The notes under the pieces: model-generated | What the model was told of the DNA's origin: nothing | The model's database searches: none | What the model saw: the letters and a program-made list of their open reading frames with translations, nothing else | Made by a program: the position numbers and the translations under genes | Shown here: positions 1,599-34,597 of the stretch, piece by piece | Numbering within the stretch: position 1 is the stretch's first letter | Layout: every line of letters starts with the position of its first letter | DNA from: a virus | Lineage: Duplodnaviria > Heunggongvirae > Uroviricota > Caudoviricetes | Direction: 5' to 3' (one strand) | DNA length: 39,683 nt | IMG/VR virus record: IMGVR_UViG_2886169441_000004

Positions 1599-1739
1599 TT
1601 ACTGCTTACACTGTAAGAACGCCGCAAACTCCGCTCCCCAGAAACTCATCCGTATTTCACACAGCGAACCGTGCAGCATCCAGATGATGAGGATTGCCGT
1701 CACGCAGAATGTGATGGCCGTAAGCGATTTTTGCGACAT
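1599..1739 (-). CDS. candidate small hydrophobic protein, 46 aa (MSQKSLTAITFCVTAILIIWMLHGSLCEIRMSFWGAEFAAFLQCKQ)
   Basis: Manually translated minus-strand ORF below the track cutoff; ATG preceded by AAGGAG at about 8 nt spacing; predicted single transmembrane segment. Confidence 0.3.
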   Translation of the reverse strand: MSQKSLTAITFCVTAILIIWMLHGSLCEIRMSFWGAEFAAFLQCKQ

Positions 1740-9093: not shown

Positions 9094-9123
9094 AAAACCG
9101 CTAATGGTCAGATTAGCGGTTTT
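9094..9123. terminator. perfect palindromic hairpin between convergent U and invertase genes
   Basis: AAAACCGCTAAT-GGTCAG-ATTAGCGGTTTT with 12-bp arms; A-run on one side and T-run on the other, so it can terminate in both directions. Confidence 0.65.
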
Positions 9124-9712
9124 CATTTTCCTGAGTCTGCCCGGTTGTTTCTTCAGTCTGTATATCGCCTACAGGGTGATAACGATAAATCGTCGATGTG
9201 CCAATGCCGTAAATTATTGCCAGTTGTTTTCTGTCGTGCCCGTTTTTGATTAGCCTTGCTATTTGCTCATGCTGTTCTTTTGTCAGCTTCGGTCGACGTC
9301 CGCCTGTGCGCCCCCTTGCGCGCGCTGCCGCCAGCCCGGCCAGTGTACGTTCAACAATTAATTCACGTTCCATTTCAGCCAGGGCACCCATCACGTGGAA
9401 GAAAAAACGCCCCATTGGAGAAGATGTGTCTATGCTGTCGGTCAGACTGCGAAAATTAATCCCTCGCTCCCGTAGTTCCCCGACGAGAGAAATCAGATGT
9501 TTCATGCTTCGCCCGAGGCGATCCAGTTTCCAGACAACCAGCGTGTCACCTTTTTGAAGGCGCTTTAAAGCGCGTTTTAATCCCGGTCGGTCTGTCTTTG
9601 TCCCGCTTAATTTATCTTCAAATATTTGTTCACATCCTGCACAAACAAGAGCGTTTCGTTGCAGGTCTGTATTCTGGTCATTTGTTGATACCCTTACATA
9701 GCCAATCAGCAC
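9113..9712 (-). CDS. pin: serine recombinase, DNA invertase of the Pin/Hin/Gin/Cin family
   Basis: Near-identical over most of its length to e14 Pin as I recall it (LIGYVRVSTNDQNTDLQRNAL..., catalytic Ser in the RVST motif); start placed at GTG 9712 with GGGAGA upstream, while the track's extended ORF begins at a TTG. Confidence 0.92.
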   Translation of the reverse strand: MLIGYVRVSTNDQNTDLQRNALVCAGCEQIFEDKLSGTKTDRPGLKRALKRLQKGDTLVVWKLDRLGRSMKHLISLVGELRERGINFRSLTDSIDTSSPMGRFFFHVMGALAEMERELIVERTLAGLAAARARGRTGGRRPKLTKEQHEQIARLIKNGHDRKQLAIIYGIGTSTIYRYHPVGDIQTEETTGQTQENENR

Positions 9713-9766
9713 ACTGAATCTCCCGTCCAAAAGCGCAAATCATGCCATGCAGGCCAGAAACGGCCA

Positions 9767-26697: not shown

Positions 26698-26714
26698 TGG
26701 GGCTGTCCTTTTTA
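26681..26714. terminator. bidirectional rho-independent terminator after Q
   Basis: Stem CAGCCCC / GGGGCTG with loop GTGAT, flanked by an A-run upstream and T-run downstream; also lies after the stop of the convergent gene 26712..27236. Confidence 0.65.
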
Positions 26715-27236
26715 CCAGAGTTGAACCATTTTCTGGGTGCCGTCAGGCTTGAGATTATCAATTTCAGAGAGAACGTAATATTGAATGGCTTCACAAACGG
26801 TGGTGTAGGGTGAATTACCTTCTTTAAGTGGCACGATATTATTATTAACGCGAACCTGTATTTCATCGTTATACATTGCGATCGAAACAGGAGTGTGCAC
26901 GAACGCGACTTCGCCAGGTGTGTCGTCAACCACCGTTTCAATACTAAAAGTCAGTTTTCGCTCATCATTGCTGCCCCGTGCTTTGGGGGTAGCGGCAGGG
27001 ATCTGGGATAAAGGCATTCTGCGAAATCCTTCGGCTGCTTCCAGTCCGCATGAAACGTAATGCTGGCGATTACCGTCGCTATCTGTCCAGGTCTGTGATG
27101 GCAGCTCCAGCGAGATTTCATAAGCATCAACAATGCCCTGGGCAAGGCGTACAAGCGGGGTCAGATCTTCATTGCGGCGAAAGCTCTCCTTTACCTGCTC
27201 CCGTTTTTCTCTTAACTGCTTGTAATTAATGACCAT
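26712..27236 (-). CDS. hypothetical cargo protein, about 174 aa, no recognisable domain
   Basis: ORF 26712..27275; start placed at ATG 27236 (MVINYKQLREK...) with GGAGG at 7 nt spacing; convergent with the portal gene. Confidence 0.6.
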   Translation of the reverse strand: MVINYKQLREKREQVKESFRRNEDLTPLVRLAQGIVDAYEISLELPSQTWTDSDGNRQHYVSCGLEAAEGFRRMPLSQIPAATPKARGSNDERKLTFSIETVVDDTPGEVAFVHTPVSIAMYNDEIQVRVNNNIVPLKEGNSPYTTVCEAIQYYVLSEIDNLKPDGTQKMVQLW

Positions 27237-27336
27237 AAGACAGCCTCCATTGATTTCTTTGCTCGTATTTTGCACTTATGAAGTATGGTCGGCAAGGTGC
27301 CGTATCGCTGACGCGCTTCGCTTGTCTGCTGCTTCG

Positions 27337-27898: not shown

Positions 27899-27918
27899 GC
27901 TACGTTGACCTCTAATGA

Positions 27919-27946
27919 GGCGGGGATTTGCTCCCCGCCTTTTTTA
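27919..27946 (+). terminator. intrinsic terminator/attenuator hairpin 14 nt upstream of the cargo operon start
   Basis: Stem GGCGGGGA / TCCCCGCC with loop TTTGC, followed by seven T residues. Confidence 0.6.
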
Positions 27947-27959
27947 TGGATGAAATAGG

Positions 27960-28457
27960 ATGAACCCAATAACACTACAAATCATCAGCAATGCTATTGT
28001 TCTGCTTGGCGTTTTGGTTGCCATTGGAACCATTATCTACAATGTGCGTACCGCAAAAAAAACTCAAACGGCCAACTTTCTTTTTGAGAGTCGGCAAGAT
28101 ATGCAATATATAGAGTCATTGCATACCCTGAAACAAGTGCATCGTTCAGGCAAATCATTTCGTTCTTATGTTTTTCCTTGTGATGGTTGCATAATAACAG
28201 ATGAAGAAATGGCCGAGCGTCGAAAATTTCAATATATTTTAAATTTTTACGAGCGAGTTGCTGTAAGTATTCGTGAAGGTATTTATGATGAAAAAATGAT
28301 AAAAAGAACATCTTACACAACAGTTGTAGAGACATATGATATTGCCGAGCCATTAATTAAAGCAATCAGAGAAAGCATTAATTCGGATACTACATATCAA
28401 GAATTCGAATGGTTAGTAAGAAGATGGAAAGCTAATCCTTTACGGAAAAACAAATAA
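27960..28457 (+). CDS. cargo protein 1: 165 aa, N-terminal transmembrane helix plus soluble domain, unknown function
   Basis: Markedly AT-rich ORF; N-terminal hydrophobic stretch ITLQIISNAIVLLGVLVAIGTIIY; no similarity to P2 core genes. Confidence 0.7.
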   Translation: MNPITLQIISNAIVLLGVLVAIGTIIYNVRTAKKTQTANFLFESRQDMQYIESLHTLKQVHRSGKSFRSYVFPCDGCIITDEEMAERRKFQYILNFYERVAVSIREGIYDEKMIKRTSYTTVVETYDIAEPLIKAIRESINSDTTYQEFEWLVRRWKANPLRKNK

Positions 28458-28496
28458 TGTTTTACCCTTTAATTTACAAGTAACACAGGGGGAAGT

Positions 28497-29339
28497 GTGA
28501 CACAGAATCCGTTTTCATTTTATGACTTTTTGGGCTATCTAATTCCAGGTGGGTTATTCCTGTTTATCCTTTTTTTGTTTTCTATTGAAATTAACCCTGT
28601 TTATATAGAAGGTATTCTTAACCATATCCTGAAATATAAAGAAATAATAAGTGTATTTATATATGTGGTATTAATCGTTCTATCATATATTTCAGGTCAC
28701 TTCATATCTATTCTATCATCCTGTTTAATTGAAAAATACATGAACAGTAAACTTGGGTATCCTTCAATTTATCTGTTTTCTAAAAGAAGCTCCCTGAAAA
28801 TAAAACGACATAATACTAAGTTCAGTATAGTTAATTTTATTCGTGGAGTTTTTTTATTTCCTGTATCAGCTTTTGATAAAGCAGAACATCATAAAACCAC
28901 ACTGCATTCTATACTTATTAAAGTCTTTTGGCCGCAAATACGAGATGGTTATATAAATGTTTTTTCTGTATCTACGCTATATCGACGTAAGGGCTTGAGG
29001 GGCGATCTTTTTCGCCTTGCTTATCATTATGTGTATGAACATTCTAAAAATCATCAGGTGAAAATGCAAAACTATGTTGCTTTGTATGGTTTTTGTAGAA
29101 ACATTACATTTGTTTTTCTCGCTTCAGTCTGGTTGCTTATGTTCCTGCTCCTTCTATCCTTTTTAATAGATATAAATATCAGACTGTTACCTTTTTGTTT
29201 TCTTCTCTTGTTTTGTATTGCTGCATCCCGAGTATTTTATTATGGTTTTGTTAAGTATTATCGCCGCTATTCTCTTGAGGTTTTAATGGCATTTGCGGTA
29301 CTTCAGCACGATAAAAAAACTTCGGCAATTTCATCATGA
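28497..29339 (+). CDS. cargo protein 2: 280 aa, polytopic membrane protein (about 4 TM helices around a roughly 110-aa soluble region), unknown function
   Basis: AT-rich ORF 39 bp after cargo protein 1; GTG start with GGGGGAAG upstream; two hydrophobic helices at each end. Confidence 0.68.
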   Translation: MTQNPFSFYDFLGYLIPGGLFLFILFLFSIEINPVYIEGILNHILKYKEIISVFIYVVLIVLSYISGHFISILSSCLIEKYMNSKLGYPSIYLFSKRSSLKIKRHNTKFSIVNFIRGVFLFPVSAFDKAEHHKTTLHSILIKVFWPQIRDGYINVFSVSTLYRRKGLRGDLFRLAYHYVYEHSKNHQVKMQNYVALYGFCRNITFVFLASVWLLMFLLLLSFLIDINIRLLPFCFLLLFCIAASRVFYYGFVKYYRRYSLEVLMAFAVLQHDKKTSAISS

Positions 29340-29350
29340 TTTGAAACATT

Positions 29351-29373
29351 GGCACCCTGTTAGCAAGGGTGCC
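29351..29373. terminator. hairpin GGCACCCT-GTTAGCA-AGGGTGCC between the convergent cargo operon and parR
   Basis: Perfect 8-bp stem read from sequence, placed between the two convergent 3' ends. Confidence 0.5.
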
Positions 29374-29422
29374 AGAATGATGTGTTGGTCTGTATTTTAT
29401 TAGTTCACATACAATTATCAGA

Positions 29423-29737
29423 TTATTCTGGGAATAAGGTCTGAATATTCTTTTTTATTTTATAAAAATTGCATTCAACTCCGCTAGGCTGATTATCCTG
29501 GTATGTTTCCTTGATGCTAACGGTATTGAAGGGGAGGTTGTCCTCTGGCCATTCGGCCATCCAGTAGGCAAATGCTGGGTTGCGCTTTATGAGCGCTAGC
29601 CCAGCCAGAAAGGCCGCGCGTTGCGCGCGGCTGCGTTCGGAGGCTGGCAGGCTATCGAGGTAATTGCACGCCTCCTGTTCACTCTTGACGGCGGCGGGCT
29701 TCAGATAGAAACTTATCCGTCTGGTTGGTGTCGTCAT
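29423..29737 (-). CDS. parR: ParR-like centromere-binding protein (ribbon-helix-helix)
   Basis: Start placed at the internal ATG; RRISFYLKPAAVKSEQEACNYLDSLPASERSRAQRAAFLAGLAL resembles the N-terminus of plasmid R1 ParR as I recall it; directly downstream of parM. Confidence 0.78.
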   Translation of the reverse strand: MTTPTRRISFYLKPAAVKSEQEACNYLDSLPASERSRAQRAAFLAGLALIKRNPAFAYWMAEWPEDNLPFNTVSIKETYQDNQPSGVECNFYKIKKNIQTLFPE

Positions 29738-29741
29738 TGGT

Positions 29742-30701
29742 TTACTCCTTGTCCATTGCGTACAGCCCATTAACCAGAGCAAACTGTGGCACCCCGTCCG
29801 CGATGAAAGTCGCATTAACTCCGCAGACTTCGCGGATAGCGGGTGCCACAATCTCCGCCCCTCCACCGACAACCATCACCCGCCCGTAACCCGAAAAAAC
29901 CGCCAGCGCGCGGATCACGCGTTGTTTCAGTGTTTCTTCCTTTTCACGAATAACCGCCATCAGGCTGGCGTAATGCGCGTCATTGTGGATGTGCTGGCGC
30001 AGCCAGGCTTCATCATGGCGATGTTCGATAATGGTATTGGCGATGTGGTGACTGGTGCGCATACCGTTAGTGGCCATCACCGACAGTACGGCATCGGCCA
30101 TCAGGGAAACGCCTACGTGTGGATCGCAAAACACCTGGCTGATACCTGCCAGTTGCCCTTGAACCTTTGCCACATCCAGCGTGGTTCCGCCTAAATCCAC
30201 AATCAGCAGGGATTCAAACGGACTCATGTCAGCCAGTGCTTTAAAGCCAGCCGGAATGGATTCAGGCATAACCCGCACGTTACGGATAGTGAATGCTTCG
30301 CCGTTCTGGTATTCCACCGGGCGCATAACGTTCGCTTTTTTGCGGTTGATGTTGGCCATGTCCGGCTGTGCGTTTGTGTCGAAATACTCGCTCAGTGGCA
30401 GGGTGACAACCACATCCACCTCCTGTGGCGTGATGCCTGATTTGACCAGCGCGTGATGAATGGCGATTACATTCACATCGCTGTACTGGTATTGCGTGTC
30501 GGTCGTCTGGACAAAGCGATCGCTAACCGGATCAAAACCATAGCGCACGCCATCAAGCATGTAGTTCGCGGGCTGCATGCCACCGAACGGCGCAGACCAT
30601 TCCGACTTGAAGCTGTTCGGGCTGATGGCGTTGCGGCGTTCGCCATTCTCAGTCCATGCCAGCTTGATGTTGGTGGAGCCGTCGTCGATACAAATTTTCA
30701 T
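29742..30701 (-). CDS. parM: ParM/StbA-like actin-type segregation ATPase
   Basis: 319 aa; N-terminal phosphate-1 motif MKICIDDGSTNIKLAW and later blocks (ISPNSFK, QYSDVNVIAIHHAL, IVDLGGTTLD) resemble R1 ParM. Confidence 0.88.
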   Translation of the reverse strand: MKICIDDGSTNIKLAWTENGERRNAISPNSFKSEWSAPFGGMQPANYMLDGVRYGFDPVSDRFVQTTDTQYQYSDVNVIAIHHALVKSGITPQEVDVVVTLPLSEYFDTNAQPDMANINRKKANVMRPVEYQNGEAFTIRNVRVMPESIPAGFKALADMSPFESLLIVDLGGTTLDVAKVQGQLAGISQVFCDPHVGVSLMADAVLSVMATNGMRTSHHIANTIIEHRHDEAWLRQHIHNDAHYASLMAVIREKEETLKQRVIRALAVFSGYGRVMVVGGGAEIVAPAIREVCGVNATFIADGVPQFALVNGLYAMDKE

Positions 30702-30726
30702 GTCGCTTTTCCTTATGTTGATTAAT

Positions 30727-30845
30727 TAATCGTTTACGGGATTCTGAAATCCCGTTTTTGCCTGTTTTGTGCGCGCTTCATATATCGCTGCGCGTTTTTT
30801 GCTCATTTACGGGATTCGTAAGTCCCGTTTCTGTCTGTTTTTTGT
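30727..30845. repeat. two about 42-bp direct repeats, each with a palindromic core ACGGGAnTCnnAAnTCCCGT followed by a T-rich tract, 74 bp apart
   Basis: Read from sequence, upstream of parM; the distal copy overlaps the last codons of gene A; possible parC-like centromere or operator, or a terminator pair. Confidence 0.5.
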
Positions 30846-33600
30846 TTCCACTGGTCAGGCCACCCCGCAGCAGGTCTGCTTTGCGGCTGGCGCGTTCAGT
30901 GGTTTCACTGATTCTCTGTGCGTGCTCTGCGTCGCGGATGGCGCGCAGCATGTCAGAAAGCACGGTAACGGGTGTTTTCATGGTGTTCTGGCCCTGCTGA
31001 AGTGTGGATGCCAGGCGTGCGGCGGCTTCAGGGTCTGATGCCCCCAGCTGTGCCAGATAGCTGGCGACCGGGTTATGGCGGATCTCCGTGCTGCTTACGC
31101 CATGATTACGGCTCAGGCGCTGCCAGAGCTGCGTGATTCGGCTGTCCGGGCGGGTATCCGGTTTGCGTACAATTTCAAATCCCTGCGGTGCAATGATGCT
31201 GCCGTCAACGTACAGACTGCCGCCCCGTAACAGGTGCTGCATCTGTTGTTCACCGATATGCAGGCCGAGAGATTCAGCAGACTCCCGCCATTCTTTAGCG
31301 AGTAATTCGTGGTTATCAGGCAAAGGCCGCTGCTGTTTGCGGCTCTGTGTCCAGCTCTGCATTTCATCGCTGCTGTTTTTTGCCTGTTTGTCACGAAGCG
31401 AACGCATCAGCGCCCGGCGTTCGTGTCGTTTCAGTGAGCGCATCCATTCGTTCACTTCAACGCCGTCAGGGAGCTGCGGCCACGGTGCTGGCCGTTCTTC
31501 CGGCTGTTCTGTCCCGTTGTTGTCCGTTTCCTGTACACGGGGACAGTTATTGCCACGAGTCCAAGGGGCGGCAGGGCCGCCCTGAAGGTCAAAACCATTT
31601 TCGCGGGCGCTGTCTTCCGCTTCCGGTTTACGTCTTACCAGCTTCCAGTTATCCGGATGCGTGCACACACGGGAGGATTCCCCGATGAGTGGTGACCAGA
31701 TCCCGTAAATCTGTACGCTCTGTTCGCCGTAATCGTTCAGCTCATCTGCGAGGTCGTAGGCGGTGCGAATCAGGTAGTCCTTGCGTGGAACAAGCACGCC
31801 ACCCTGTTTTTCAATGTAGGTGGCAAAACACCCGGCATCGGCGGCAGCGAGTACCGCATCCATTGCATCATCTTTCAGCCGTTGCGGGCCTTCCGGATTG
31901 CGTGCCATCTGGCTGGCAAGGCGGCGCAGTTCACGCCACACCTGACGGGAGGGGATGCCAAAGAACTGGAACTGACGGACCCGGTGAAGGCGCGCCCAGC
32001 CGATGGCGCGCTCCACGCTCTCGGCCATTGATTTTCCGGTTTCGTGGTCCACGCGTGGCTTGCCCGTTTTCGGGTCGATGCCATCCACGGCGCGGCTGTC
32101 CAGGTTCTTTCCGATGTAGGTGGCGATGTAGCTGGTTGGCGTGCCTTTTGAGCCGTCGACATACTCCACCTTAAAGCGCGGAGTAATATCATTGCCCAGC
32201 TCGTGGCGGTCTTCCTGAATGGCAATATCGCGGGTATGGGACACAATGGTGTCGATTTCTTCCGGATGTGCAAAGACCATCATATGCCAGTGCACGGTGC
32301 CGTCATGATGAGGCTCCACCGTGCGGATGCCATACCAGCGCAGGCCGTCGCGGTTCAGTTTTTTGCGGACCGCCGCAAAAAACGTGTTAACCAGGTAATC
32401 GCTGGAGTCGCGCATTGTGGCCCCGTTCCATTTGGGATTCGGATGACCGTTCTCCGTTGTGGCGTGGTATTTTGACGGGCAGGTGACAGTCAGAAACACC
32501 GCTTTGTCGCCACGGGCTTCGGCCAGAAGTTCCAGTCCCTTCATGGTGGCCATCATTTCTGCCTTACGGTGAACCGGGTTACTTACTCCCGCGTAATACA
32601 CTGTCTCGAGATCAATCGTGAACCCGTCTTCATTTTCCAGCATGAAACTTTTCAGGAAATCGCGTGTTTTCTCGCGCTGTGCGCGAAACTCGCTTAACGC
32701 GTCCTGGCTCAGATAGGGTGATGTTTTTCTGGAAACCAGACAGGCGGCGCGGAGTTGTTCTTCTCTCCACTCGCAACGTAACAGCCACAGTTTGCGTTTC
32801 CACCATTCCGCACAGGTCAGGCGAAGGATTGCGCCCGGCAGCAGCTCCGTGTCCGGTTCGTTCCTCCGGTCTTTGTCTGTTGTCAGTGCGTCATAATGTG
32901 GAGGCATGGCGTGCAGGTGTAACGCCATGCGGGCCAGCATCTGATACGCCTTCAGGGTTACATCCATGGTCAGCTCGCCATCGGTCGCGCCAAAGCCATC
33001 GCAGAGTTTTTCGAAGGTGCTGCTGAACATCGCCGCCGTCATGGTGGCCAGCGTCTGTATCTGGTGTTTGTTGAGCTGCGGCAGGTAAAGCAAATCGTCC
33101 AGGCGTTCGCGTCCGGCAAGGGAGCGATAACCCGGTGTCAGCCAGCGTCCGTCAGTGCTATCCAGACGTTCGAATATTTTGCGCAGGGTTCCGCGTGCAT
33201 AGCGTTCCGCCTGCCAGCTCTTTTTGCCTTTCCGGCGATCGGCTTCCTGTTTTTTGCGCAGGAAGGAGAGGTGGCGAATAAGCGGATCGCGCAGATAGGA
33301 CGGCAGCAGGCGCAGCGAGGCCATGGCTTCATCCACCGCGCCACGTGCCTGTTTTCTGGCGTCTCCTGCCAGTGTGATGGTTTTGTCCTGTTTTTCCTGT
33401 GCGTCCAGGCTTTTATTAATCAGGTTGCCCAGCGGCGTGGCTGAGAACGCCGCATCAGCCATTTCCTGGCGGCGCTCGTTCTCTGCCCGGTAGGCATCCA
33501 GCCAGGAGGAAAGCGCGGATTCAGGAGCGGGGATCCCCGTTCCTTCACGCCCCACTGCGTGGCGCGGTTGTTGCCAGTCCCTGAGGTACTCTGCCGTCAT
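30778..33600 (-). CDS. A: replication initiation endonuclease A (rolling-circle, HUH-type)
   Basis: 940 aa; the VEPHHDGTVHWHMMVF block matches the P2 gpA metal-binding motif; C-terminal region longer than P2 A. Confidence 0.92.
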   Translation of the reverse strand: MTAEYLRDWQQPRHAVGREGTGIPAPESALSSWLDAYRAENERRQEMADAAFSATPLGNLINKSLDAQEKQDKTITLAGDARKQARGAVDEAMASLRLLPSYLRDPLIRHLSFLRKKQEADRRKGKKSWQAERYARGTLRKIFERLDSTDGRWLTPGYRSLAGRERLDDLLYLPQLNKHQIQTLATMTAAMFSSTFEKLCDGFGATDGELTMDVTLKAYQMLARMALHLHAMPPHYDALTTDKDRRNEPDTELLPGAILRLTCAEWWKRKLWLLRCEWREEQLRAACLVSRKTSPYLSQDALSEFRAQREKTRDFLKSFMLENEDGFTIDLETVYYAGVSNPVHRKAEMMATMKGLELLAEARGDKAVFLTVTCPSKYHATTENGHPNPKWNGATMRDSSDYLVNTFFAAVRKKLNRDGLRWYGIRTVEPHHDGTVHWHMMVFAHPEEIDTIVSHTRDIAIQEDRHELGNDITPRFKVEYVDGSKGTPTSYIATYIGKNLDSRAVDGIDPKTGKPRVDHETGKSMAESVERAIGWARLHRVRQFQFFGIPSRQVWRELRRLASQMARNPEGPQRLKDDAMDAVLAAADAGCFATYIEKQGGVLVPRKDYLIRTAYDLADELNDYGEQSVQIYGIWSPLIGESSRVCTHPDNWKLVRRKPEAEDSARENGFDLQGGPAAPWTRGNNCPRVQETDNNGTEQPEERPAPWPQLPDGVEVNEWMRSLKRHERRALMRSLRDKQAKNSSDEMQSWTQSRKQQRPLPDNHELLAKEWRESAESLGLHIGEQQMQHLLRGGSLYVDGSIIAPQGFEIVRKPDTRPDSRITQLWQRLSRNHGVSSTEIRHNPVASYLAQLGASDPEAAARLASTLQQGQNTMKTPVTVLSDMLRAIRDAEHAQRISETTERASRKADLLRGGLTSGNKKQTETGLTNPVNEQKTRSDI

Positions 33601-34044: not shown

Positions 34045-34275
34045 TTAATGGAGTTTGTTTTGCTGCTGGATGAGCTGTTGAAGCTCGTGCAGATCATCCG
34101 CCAGATAGCTGAAAACAGAGGCGGAATAAATGTTTGATAGTGCGTGGCTGCGCTCATGCAGCATATTGATGTGCATGATTTGCGCGACGCGTGATGCGCG
34201 GGAAAGTCTGCGGTTGATTTCAGTCTGGATGTGACGACGCTCCGCGATAGCGCGGTGCTGTTTGCGGTTTGCCAT
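34045..34275 (-). CDS. early-operon small basic protein, 76 aa
   Basis: ORF with a protein-like composition; preferred over the overlapping low-complexity 205-aa ORF 33969..34586. Confidence 0.5.
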   Translation of the reverse strand: MANRKQHRAIAERRHIQTEINRRLSRASRVAQIMHINMLHERSHALSNIYSASVFSYLADDLHELQQLIQQQNKLH

Positions 34276-34597
34276 GGTGTGGCCCCTTGTGTAGTAAGTT
34301 GTGAAAACTCACCATCCAGAGCTGCGAAACTGTGGGTGGCGAGACGTACGAGGTTCGCAGTACCGGCTACACAAGAACCCGGCCCGACCGAAGTCGGCCC
34401 CGTACGCCCCGCCATAATTCTGACGCGAAAAAAACGTGGCAATACAGTACGCACAAAAAAACCGCTGGCGCGGTTGTGCGCTTGTGTAGTCAGCAGGCTG
34501 CGAAACCCGGCACCCGTTTTATGAGGTGCAGCGGAAATGTAACCTGACTGATTGCGGCATGGCAAGCGGTTTTTTTGTGTGTGCATGCTCTGGTTTC

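Follow-up and report, generated by a model that had tools for sequence, protein, structure and literature searches.

Anatomy of the locus

The 39,683-nucleotide stretch of viral DNA analyzed here (IMG/VR record IMGVR_UViG_2886169441_000004, Caudoviricetes; hereafter the window) is an integrated P2-type prophage, with the host gene serS at its left junction and a phage integrase at the other end. The genes int, C, cox, A, and ogr are all found in the window, together with the P2-type structural genes. Directly behind replication gene A lie two further minus-strand genes, parM and parR, which encode an actin-like ATPase and a predicted DNA-binding adaptor, and two repeats with palindromic cores stand just upstream of parM. 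The repeats, parM, and parR are referred to here as the cassette. Its parts, and gene A, are located as follows.

29423–29737, minus strand: parR, predicted centromere-binding adaptor (104 amino acids; ATG at 29737; PF10784)
29742–30701, minus strand: parM, actin-like segregation ATPase (319 amino acids; Pfam, PDB, and motif matches)
30730–30771, no strand: proximal 42-bp repeat, candidate half of the centromere parC (core 30736–30755; within the 76 bp that separate the A stop from the parM start)
30772–30794, no strand: spacer element, a 5-bp GC inverted repeat (CGCGC...GCGCG) centered between the repeats and enclosing the A stop codon
30803–30844, no strand: distal 42-bp repeat, candidate half of parC (core 30809–30828; inside the last codons of gene A)
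30778–33600, minus strand: replication gene A (940 amino acids; PF05840 at 4.9e-131; directly upstream of the cassette on the same strand)

Read along the minus strand, the last codons of A (stop codon 30778–30780) are followed by the 76-bp gap, parM and then parR, whose ATG is 4 nt past the parM stop and whose ribosome-binding site (AAGGAG) is inside the end of parM. This tightly coupled order, repeats–parM–parR, is that of a type II partition locus. A 149-residue open reading frame (ORF) starting from a TTG at 29872, present in the mechanical ORF list, was rejected as an over-extension of parR. In the cassette region, Escherichia phages vB_EcoM-569R5 and 705R2 match the window at 100% identity; for P88, PhiSM, 520873, and further phages of the genus Xuanwuvirus the figure is 96–98.5%.

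ParM and ParR belong to the R1 family

ParM matches two Pfam models (StbA_N, 2.7e-82; ParM C-terminal domain, 1.1e-68), both over their full length, and the solved R1 ParM structures in the PDB at 1e-92. It is 47% identical, over its full length, to ParM of the IncF plasmid pHK23a. The nucleotide-binding motifs DDGSTNIK, DLGGTTLD, and GGGAE are kept in this alignment, the phosphate-1, phosphate-2, and adenosine motifs of an actin-fold ATPase thus being aligned and conserved. ParM is 97–100% conserved among the relatives compared. Across 83 loci (the window, P88, 80 IMG/VR contigs, and one 34.5-kb plasmid record), parM is open over its full length in every case, and the mean ratio of nonsynonymous to synonymous polymorphism (pN/pS) is 0.065. 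RefSeq already names the two proteins "plasmid segregation protein ParM" and "plasmid partitioning/stability family protein," and PHROGs families exist for both (phrog_691 and phrog_2515). A ParM that is 97% identical is encoded on a 226-kb contig (NZ_JBQPOM010000071.1) of a Gram-positive assembly, "Vagococcus sp. WN89Y"; enterobacterial contamination or a mislabelled assembly is the most likely explanation.

ParR matches PF10784 (Plasmid_stab_B, the StbB/ParR family) at 8e-29, and weakly matches the pB171 ParR structure 2jd3 (E 0.012–0.024). In 103 unique full-length ParR sequences, entropy is low at positions 1–60, high at approximately 70–100, and low again over the last eight residues. The N-terminal segment TRRISFYLKP is invariant in 20 diverse homologs, and it is in this region that the DNA-binding strand lies in the ParR family. 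At the other end, a hypervariable linker leads to a conserved C-terminus, NI[QR]x[LFM]FPE (NIxxLFPE), which aligns with the KKNAMKLIN end of R1-type ParR. Structural work on R1 has established that the C-terminal peptide of ParR binds ParM, and at the sequence level the phage motif is a putative ParM-binding peptide. A conserved C-terminal island in an otherwise hypervariable tail, facing a highly conserved ParM, is what selection on the ParR–ParM contact would predict. ParR adaptors of the R1 family carry a ribbon-helix-helix DNA-binding domain at the N-terminus. An AlphaFold model of the phage ParR monomer contains helices at residues 20–29, 37–52, 54–61, and 91–101; the first three fit the family, at the low confidence of the model.

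Of the two genes, parR is the more variable. It is truncated in 1 of the 83 loci and falls into two deep allele classes, with synonymous polymorphism (pS) of 0.28 over codons 1–63 versus 0.07 for parM. Nucleotide homology with P88-type phages breaks off inside the gene, at about codon 19 (29423–29683 corresponds to codons ~19–104). This break and the divergent alleles together suggest that the edge of a recombining hotspot runs through parR. Homologs recovered in the ParR search are almost solely proteins of Escherichia, Shigella, and Salmonella, and a species-level genome scan, made in search of more distant relatives for a test of repeat conservation, returned three loci.

Upstream repeats form a candidate centromere

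The two direct repeats are 42 nt long, 83% identical, and 73 bp apart from start to start (about seven helical turns). Each has a 20-bp palindromic core, ACGGGATT-N4-AATCCCGT, and together they end 29 bp before the parM ATG. The core motif has four strand-wise matches in the window, where 0.11 would be expected, and none of 100 shuffles reached four. No other copy of the core and no half-site enrichment were found elsewhere in the window, which argues against an alternative centromere there. Across the 83 loci, the arms ACGGGATT and AATCCCGT are largely conserved and the four central bases are variable. AAAC tracts are phased at ~10.5 bp across the repeat region, an observation made post hoc. 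In the R1 family, parC is an array of repeats to which ParR binds cooperatively. The two-fold symmetry of the repeats suits a dimeric binder, and we infer from their position, symmetry, and uniqueness that they are likely to be parC.

A first-pass annotation of the same DNA, made from the sequence alone, had described ParM-like and ParR-like proteins in an integrating P2-like prophage, with two palindrome-bearing repeats where parC would be expected and the distal one overlapping the 3' end of A. Each of these points is confirmed: alignment to the Pfam and PDB families makes the proteins true members of the R1 family, and the repeats are directly upstream of parM, the distal one within the last A codons.

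Operon position and proposed function

The early operon runs cox ... A parM parR along the minus strand, and C and int diverge from it. A minus-strand scan found neither a same-strand terminator nor a consensus promoter between A and parM, from which it appears that parM and parR are co-transcribed with A at the distal end of the early operon. Beyond parR, one further feature bears on the transcript.

29350–29374, no strand: 9-bp inverted repeat TGGCACCCT/AGGGTGCCA lying where parR and the cargo genes converge; could mark where the parMR transcript ends

This inverted repeat was not flagged by the terminator scan, and our confidence in it as a transcript end is therefore low.

The interpretation we favor, and hold to be probable by a modest measure, is that the cassette is a working ParMRC segregation system of the R1 family, a core and long-resident component of P88-like (Xuanwuvirus) phages that moves extrachromosomal circles apart. 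At the A/parM junction, ParR dimers would bind both 42-bp repeats with their palindromes, which are set about seven helical turns from each other, and the conserved C-terminal helix of ParR would capture the ends of ParM filaments. Growing ATP-ParM filaments would then push pairs of phage DNA circles apart. Expression would most likely be confined to the time after infection or excision, when the phage DNA is outside the chromosome and the early operon (Pe: cox...A) is switched on. In P2, the A nickase drives rolling-circle replication, which gives rise to monomeric circles, and the timing proposed for the cassette would coincide with such A-dependent replication. The pay-off is likely to be that circles are dispersed in the cell so that both daughters receive copies before the phage integrates or lyses the host, with fewer abortive lysogenizations or cured cells, more efficient replication, or both as the consequence. 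Upkeep of a permanent plasmid prophage would be an unlikely role.

Distribution, selection, and composition

The cassette is present in 1304 of 5426 complete E. coli genomes (~24%), including ST131, UTI89, and O157:H7 strains, with up to three copies per genome. At least 80% of its length is kept in 1275 of 1305 matching E. coli records (97.7%). Within the 940 residues of the A protein, the Pfam GPA domain spans only residues 179–503. The C-terminal 200 residues of A (30778–31380), the cassette DNA, and the ParR protein each match the same 14 P88-group records, and those only, among 50,697 deposited phage genomes. The GC content of third codon positions (GC3) in parM is 0.64, equal to that of gene A, while R1-type parM has a GC3 of 0.36.

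In P2, the hotspot between A and the portal gene is a place of variable cargo, such as defense or moron genes. The cassette abuts this variable region and shows none of the marks of such cargo (variable presence, foreign composition, matches to defense families). Its composition, which is that of the phage backbone, and its intact frames argue that it is not a recent plasmid pick-up, a remnant, or variable hotspot cargo. The first-pass annotation had offered a repurposed actin-like module in the hotspot as one option, and had named a pseudogenized plasmid remnant as grounds for rejecting its reading. Neither is supported, given the backbone GC3, the retained length, and the exclusive co-occurrence with the C-terminus of the A protein of this genus. 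Plasmid-like maintenance, the more exciting option of that annotation, is weakly backed and disfavored by the distribution. What stands of that reading overall is an R1-family parMR pair with repeats at the parC position in an integrating P2-type phage.

Neighboring features of the prophage

Next to the cassette, an AT-rich region at 27900–29400 (34% GC vs 52% for the phage) is probably real hotspot cargo. Its plus-strand genes encode a DUF4760 protein (27960–28457) and a 280-residue multi-pass membrane protein (28497–29339), the latter with a weak PADLOC match (1e-5) to Csx27, a CRISPR type VI-B accessory protein. A 187-residue protein of PHROG 5091 is encoded farther on (26712–27275, minus strand).

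Between the serS junction and ogr (1931–2191) lies a 46-residue ORF of the Hok/Gef toxin family (1599–1739, minus strand), which scores 29.9 bits against PF01848 and so passes the cut-off. Rfam called no Sok RNA at the gathering score. With this hok-type toxin and parMRC, the prophage carries homologs of both classical R1 stability loci.

In the early region, Rfam identifies a C4 antisense RNA (83 bits) and an isrK Hfq-binding RNA (65 bits) at 34332–34419 and 34455–34529, both on the minus strand and directly upstream of a "derepression protein" ORF (34045–34275, PF25738). The C4 family is described in Rfam as an antisense RNA. Antisense-RNA-controlled anti-repressor modules with C4 RNA belong to the immunity systems of the plasmid prophages P1 and P7, and the three features together look like such a module inside a P2-type early region.

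A serine recombinase (9113–9730, minus strand; resolvase N-terminal domain and HTH_7) occurs where related records annotate tail-fiber and tail-fiber-assembly genes, which suggests an invertible host-range segment.

Evidence against and alternative interpretations

Several observations weigh against a working segregation cassette with the repeats as its centromere. The candidate centromere comprises only two repeat units with palindromic cores, unlike R1-type parC, in which ten 11-bp AAAACAACCC-like direct iterons are arranged in two sets of five around the promoter; the plasmid relatives of the cassette are R1-type and have these different iterons. A consensus scan of the minus strand from 30702 to 30860 detected no sigma-70-like promoter at its threshold, weak or non-consensus sites being beyond its reach, and with no promoter in the repeats there is no sign of R1-style autoregulation. 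Both hairpins score as intrinsic terminators when read on the plus strand, with an 8-bp stem and then a T run. Because the loci are 96–100% identical, the conserved state of the repeats is weak evidence of function. Among the 83 loci, ParR allele class showed no association or co-variation with repeat variants, and no compensatory double changes were found in the repeat arms; as TRRISFYLKP and the palindrome arms hardly vary, the missing co-variation neither supports nor refutes binding. The ParR monomer model is of low confidence (pLDDT, the predicted local distance difference test, 56), as is expected for a protein that is an obligate dimer. Finally, a rare P88-like prophage (NZ_CP115358.1, 1609055–1617182) lacks the cassette: a frameshifted ead/Ea22-like gene follows directly on the A stop, in place of parMR and the proximal repeat. 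The cassette is thus dispensable for the mere persistence of an integrated copy.

Some of these observations would fit a different role for the repeats. parM and parR may be functional while the 42-bp repeats are transcript-level elements, either plus-strand terminators that shield A from antisense transcription or hairpins in the mRNA, and the target of ParR is elsewhere or of a different kind. This is unlikely, but it accounts for the terminator-like form of both cores and for an architecture unlike that of R1-type iterons. The RNA of the A/parM junction also folds far better than shuffled sequences (z = –4.1), with the GC inverted repeat of the spacer as the middle stem of the predicted fold. 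Against it, the only plus-strand genes aimed at the repeats end 1.4 kb away, and no Rfam match was found in 29200–31100. Moreover, the single-base variants in the arms at the 83 loci are compatible with G-U pairing on opposite strands: the sense strand for the proximal copy, the antisense strand for the distal one. With no consistent protection of one strand and no compensatory doubles, the reading of the repeats as RNA hairpins was set aside; these data likewise do not discriminate a hairpin from a DNA site.

A second alternative accepts partition but places it in a plasmid phase: ParMRC and hok/sok would maintain the phage as a stable low-copy plasmid prophage, a facultative phage-plasmid, by segregation combined with post-segregational killing. 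It draws on the presence of homologs of both R1 stability loci, on the C4 RNA familiar from P1 and P7, and on pZ1323PEC0009-2, a circular record of 34,461 bp in PLSDB that is a complete P88-like genome. We regard it as quite unlikely. The distribution disfavors it, as 1442 of the 1444 places at which the cassette occurs in complete E. coli genomes are chromosomal and two are on plasmids, and the prophage in the window sits integrated next to serS. A single replication function was identified, the A nickase encoded in the early operon, and by analogy with P2, expression of that operon also brings late-gene activation and lysis. A phage-plasmid would be marked by an autonomous replicon and by integration that is absent or unused; this pattern was not found, and int is present. 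Among 72,556 plasmid records, pZ1323PEC0009-2 is the one whole P88-like circular genome; it retains an integrase gene and may be a separately assembled circle that arose by excision or induction. The remaining "plasmid" matches are very large replicons, an IncC plasmid with a captured prophage segment, and a linear degraded fragment. The broader proposal that P88-like phages are facultative phage-plasmids, whose excised or injected genome persists for many generations as a segregating episome before integrating or lysing, appears just as doubtful. If it were true, there would be a hidden plasmid phase, and a quarter of E. coli genomes would host a P2-type element with a carrier state.

Two of the plasmid matches deserve separate mention. 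The conjugative 228-kb IncC KPC plasmid pC-Ec2-KPC (NZ_MK439959.1) contains, at 70000–80000, a P88-like prophage segment next to an IS26 transposase, with 100% identity across parMR and A; this is an instance of a phage captured on a resistance plasmid. A 26.8-kb Shigella boydii "plasmid" was rejected as a linear, IS1-riddled prophage fragment with no evidence of a plasmid state.

It is very unlikely that the module acts against competitors, whether through partition-mediated incompatibility or exclusion of plasmids or related phages, or as an anti-phage defense pair in the A-to-Q hotspot. The position of the cassette at the edge of the variable region, the P88 homology break inside parR, the far greater divergence of parR alleles than of parM, and the occurrence of up to three copies per genome would be in keeping with such a role. 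However, the cassette is constant and the adjoining cargo variable, TRRISFYLKP is invariant and the repeat arms are largely conserved, and allele type is not linked to repeat variants. Cross-reaction with IncF plasmids is also unlikely, because the repeats do not resemble R1-type iterons. A defense system as such was rejected in the absence of any PADLOC match for ParM or ParR.

That the cassette is a decaying, functionless remnant of a plasmid acquired by the phage is barely credible: although a prophage in its integrated state has no need of partition and one locus has lost the cassette, parM is intact at all 83 loci and under purifying selection, parR is truncated at just one, the catalytic motifs are kept, the composition matches the phage backbone, and about a quarter of complete E. 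coli genomes carry it.

Novelty and significance

The genes parM and parR are already annotated (RefSeq, PHROGs), and there are precedents both for partition systems carried by integrative elements and for actin-like proteins encoded by prophages. Three things appear from the sequence to be new: that the carrier is a very common integrating P2-type genus, that the early operon ends with the cassette, and that its candidate centromere is minimal and palindrome-based. No functional work on ParM in P2-like phages, Peduoviridae, Xuanwuvirus, or P88 was found in the searchable literature, where PhiSM ORF35 is listed merely as a "fitness" gene or factor.

If the segregation cassette is active, a textbook plasmid-segregation machine would be a standard organ of one of the commonest groups of E. 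coli prophages, and a tractable E. coli system would be at hand for what an integrating virus gains by actively moving its DNA. The possible gains are the establishment of lysogeny, protection from loss after excision, and the organization of rolling-circle replication and of packaging from monomeric circles. An active cassette would also extend to enterobacterial tailed phages a principle shown for SXT/R391 and CGP3, namely an investment by integrated elements in keeping their transient circles stable, and it would add a minimal palindrome-based variant of the centromere to the best-studied ParR family.

Comparison with known systems

The closest known system is ParMRC of R1/NR1 (parA or stbAB; found in IncF plasmids such as pHK23a), with which the phage cassette shares the order centromere–parM–parR. 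The ParM proteins are 47% identical throughout, with the nucleotide-binding motifs kept. The ParR proteins both belong to PF10784; their N-terminal domains are 36–41% identical, and the C-terminal KKNxxxL(I/F) motif of the R1 type has a similar counterpart in the phage. The carriers differ, being a low-copy plasmid for R1 and an integrating P2-type phage here. So do the centromeres, as two 42-bp repeats with 20-bp palindromic cores stand in the place of 11-bp AAAACAACCC-type iterons around a promoter, and no consensus promoter was found inside the phage candidate. Phage parM also has a GC3 of 0.64 vs 0.36 for the R1 type, and phage ParR is shorter (104 vs 116 amino acids).

The srpMRC locus of SXT/R391 offers a precedent for partition in an integrated element. 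It stabilizes the excised form of SXT/R391, which replicates by a relaxase-driven rolling circle, and reduces loss of R391 (PMC4489591). Its centromere consists of four repeats, each 13 bp long, in direct and inverted orientation, upstream of the M gene, it is expressed solely from the activation-dependent promoter of the element, and it works alongside a toxin–antitoxin system (PMC4489591). Like the phage cassette, srpMRC is a type II partition locus on a normally integrated element with a nickase-replicated transient circle, and the combination of toxin–antitoxin and partition in SXT/R391 is paralleled by the hok-type toxin gene and parMRC of the prophage. In contrast, SrpM and SrpR are only distant relatives of the R1 proteins ParM and ParR, to whose families the phage proteins clearly belong. 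The carrier of srpMRC is an integrative and conjugative element, not a virus, and its function was demonstrated experimentally, while the phage cassette is known from its sequence alone.

The second precedent is AlpAC/alpS of the integrated Corynebacterium glutamicum prophage CGP3 (PMC4446434, PMC5539076), which likewise pairs an actin-like filament former with a DNA-binding adaptor in an integrated prophage. AlpAC is switched on early, and without it the phage circle does not replicate efficiently (PMC4446434). Its adaptor sites are upstream of the operon, as are the repeats proposed as sites here, and induction comes early after excision. AlpAC differs in belonging, by description, to another actin-like subfamily with another adaptor, in having the adaptor gene first, and in its Gram-positive host. 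Taken together, the srpMRC and AlpAC precedents make the role proposed for the phage cassette a plausible one for an integrated element.

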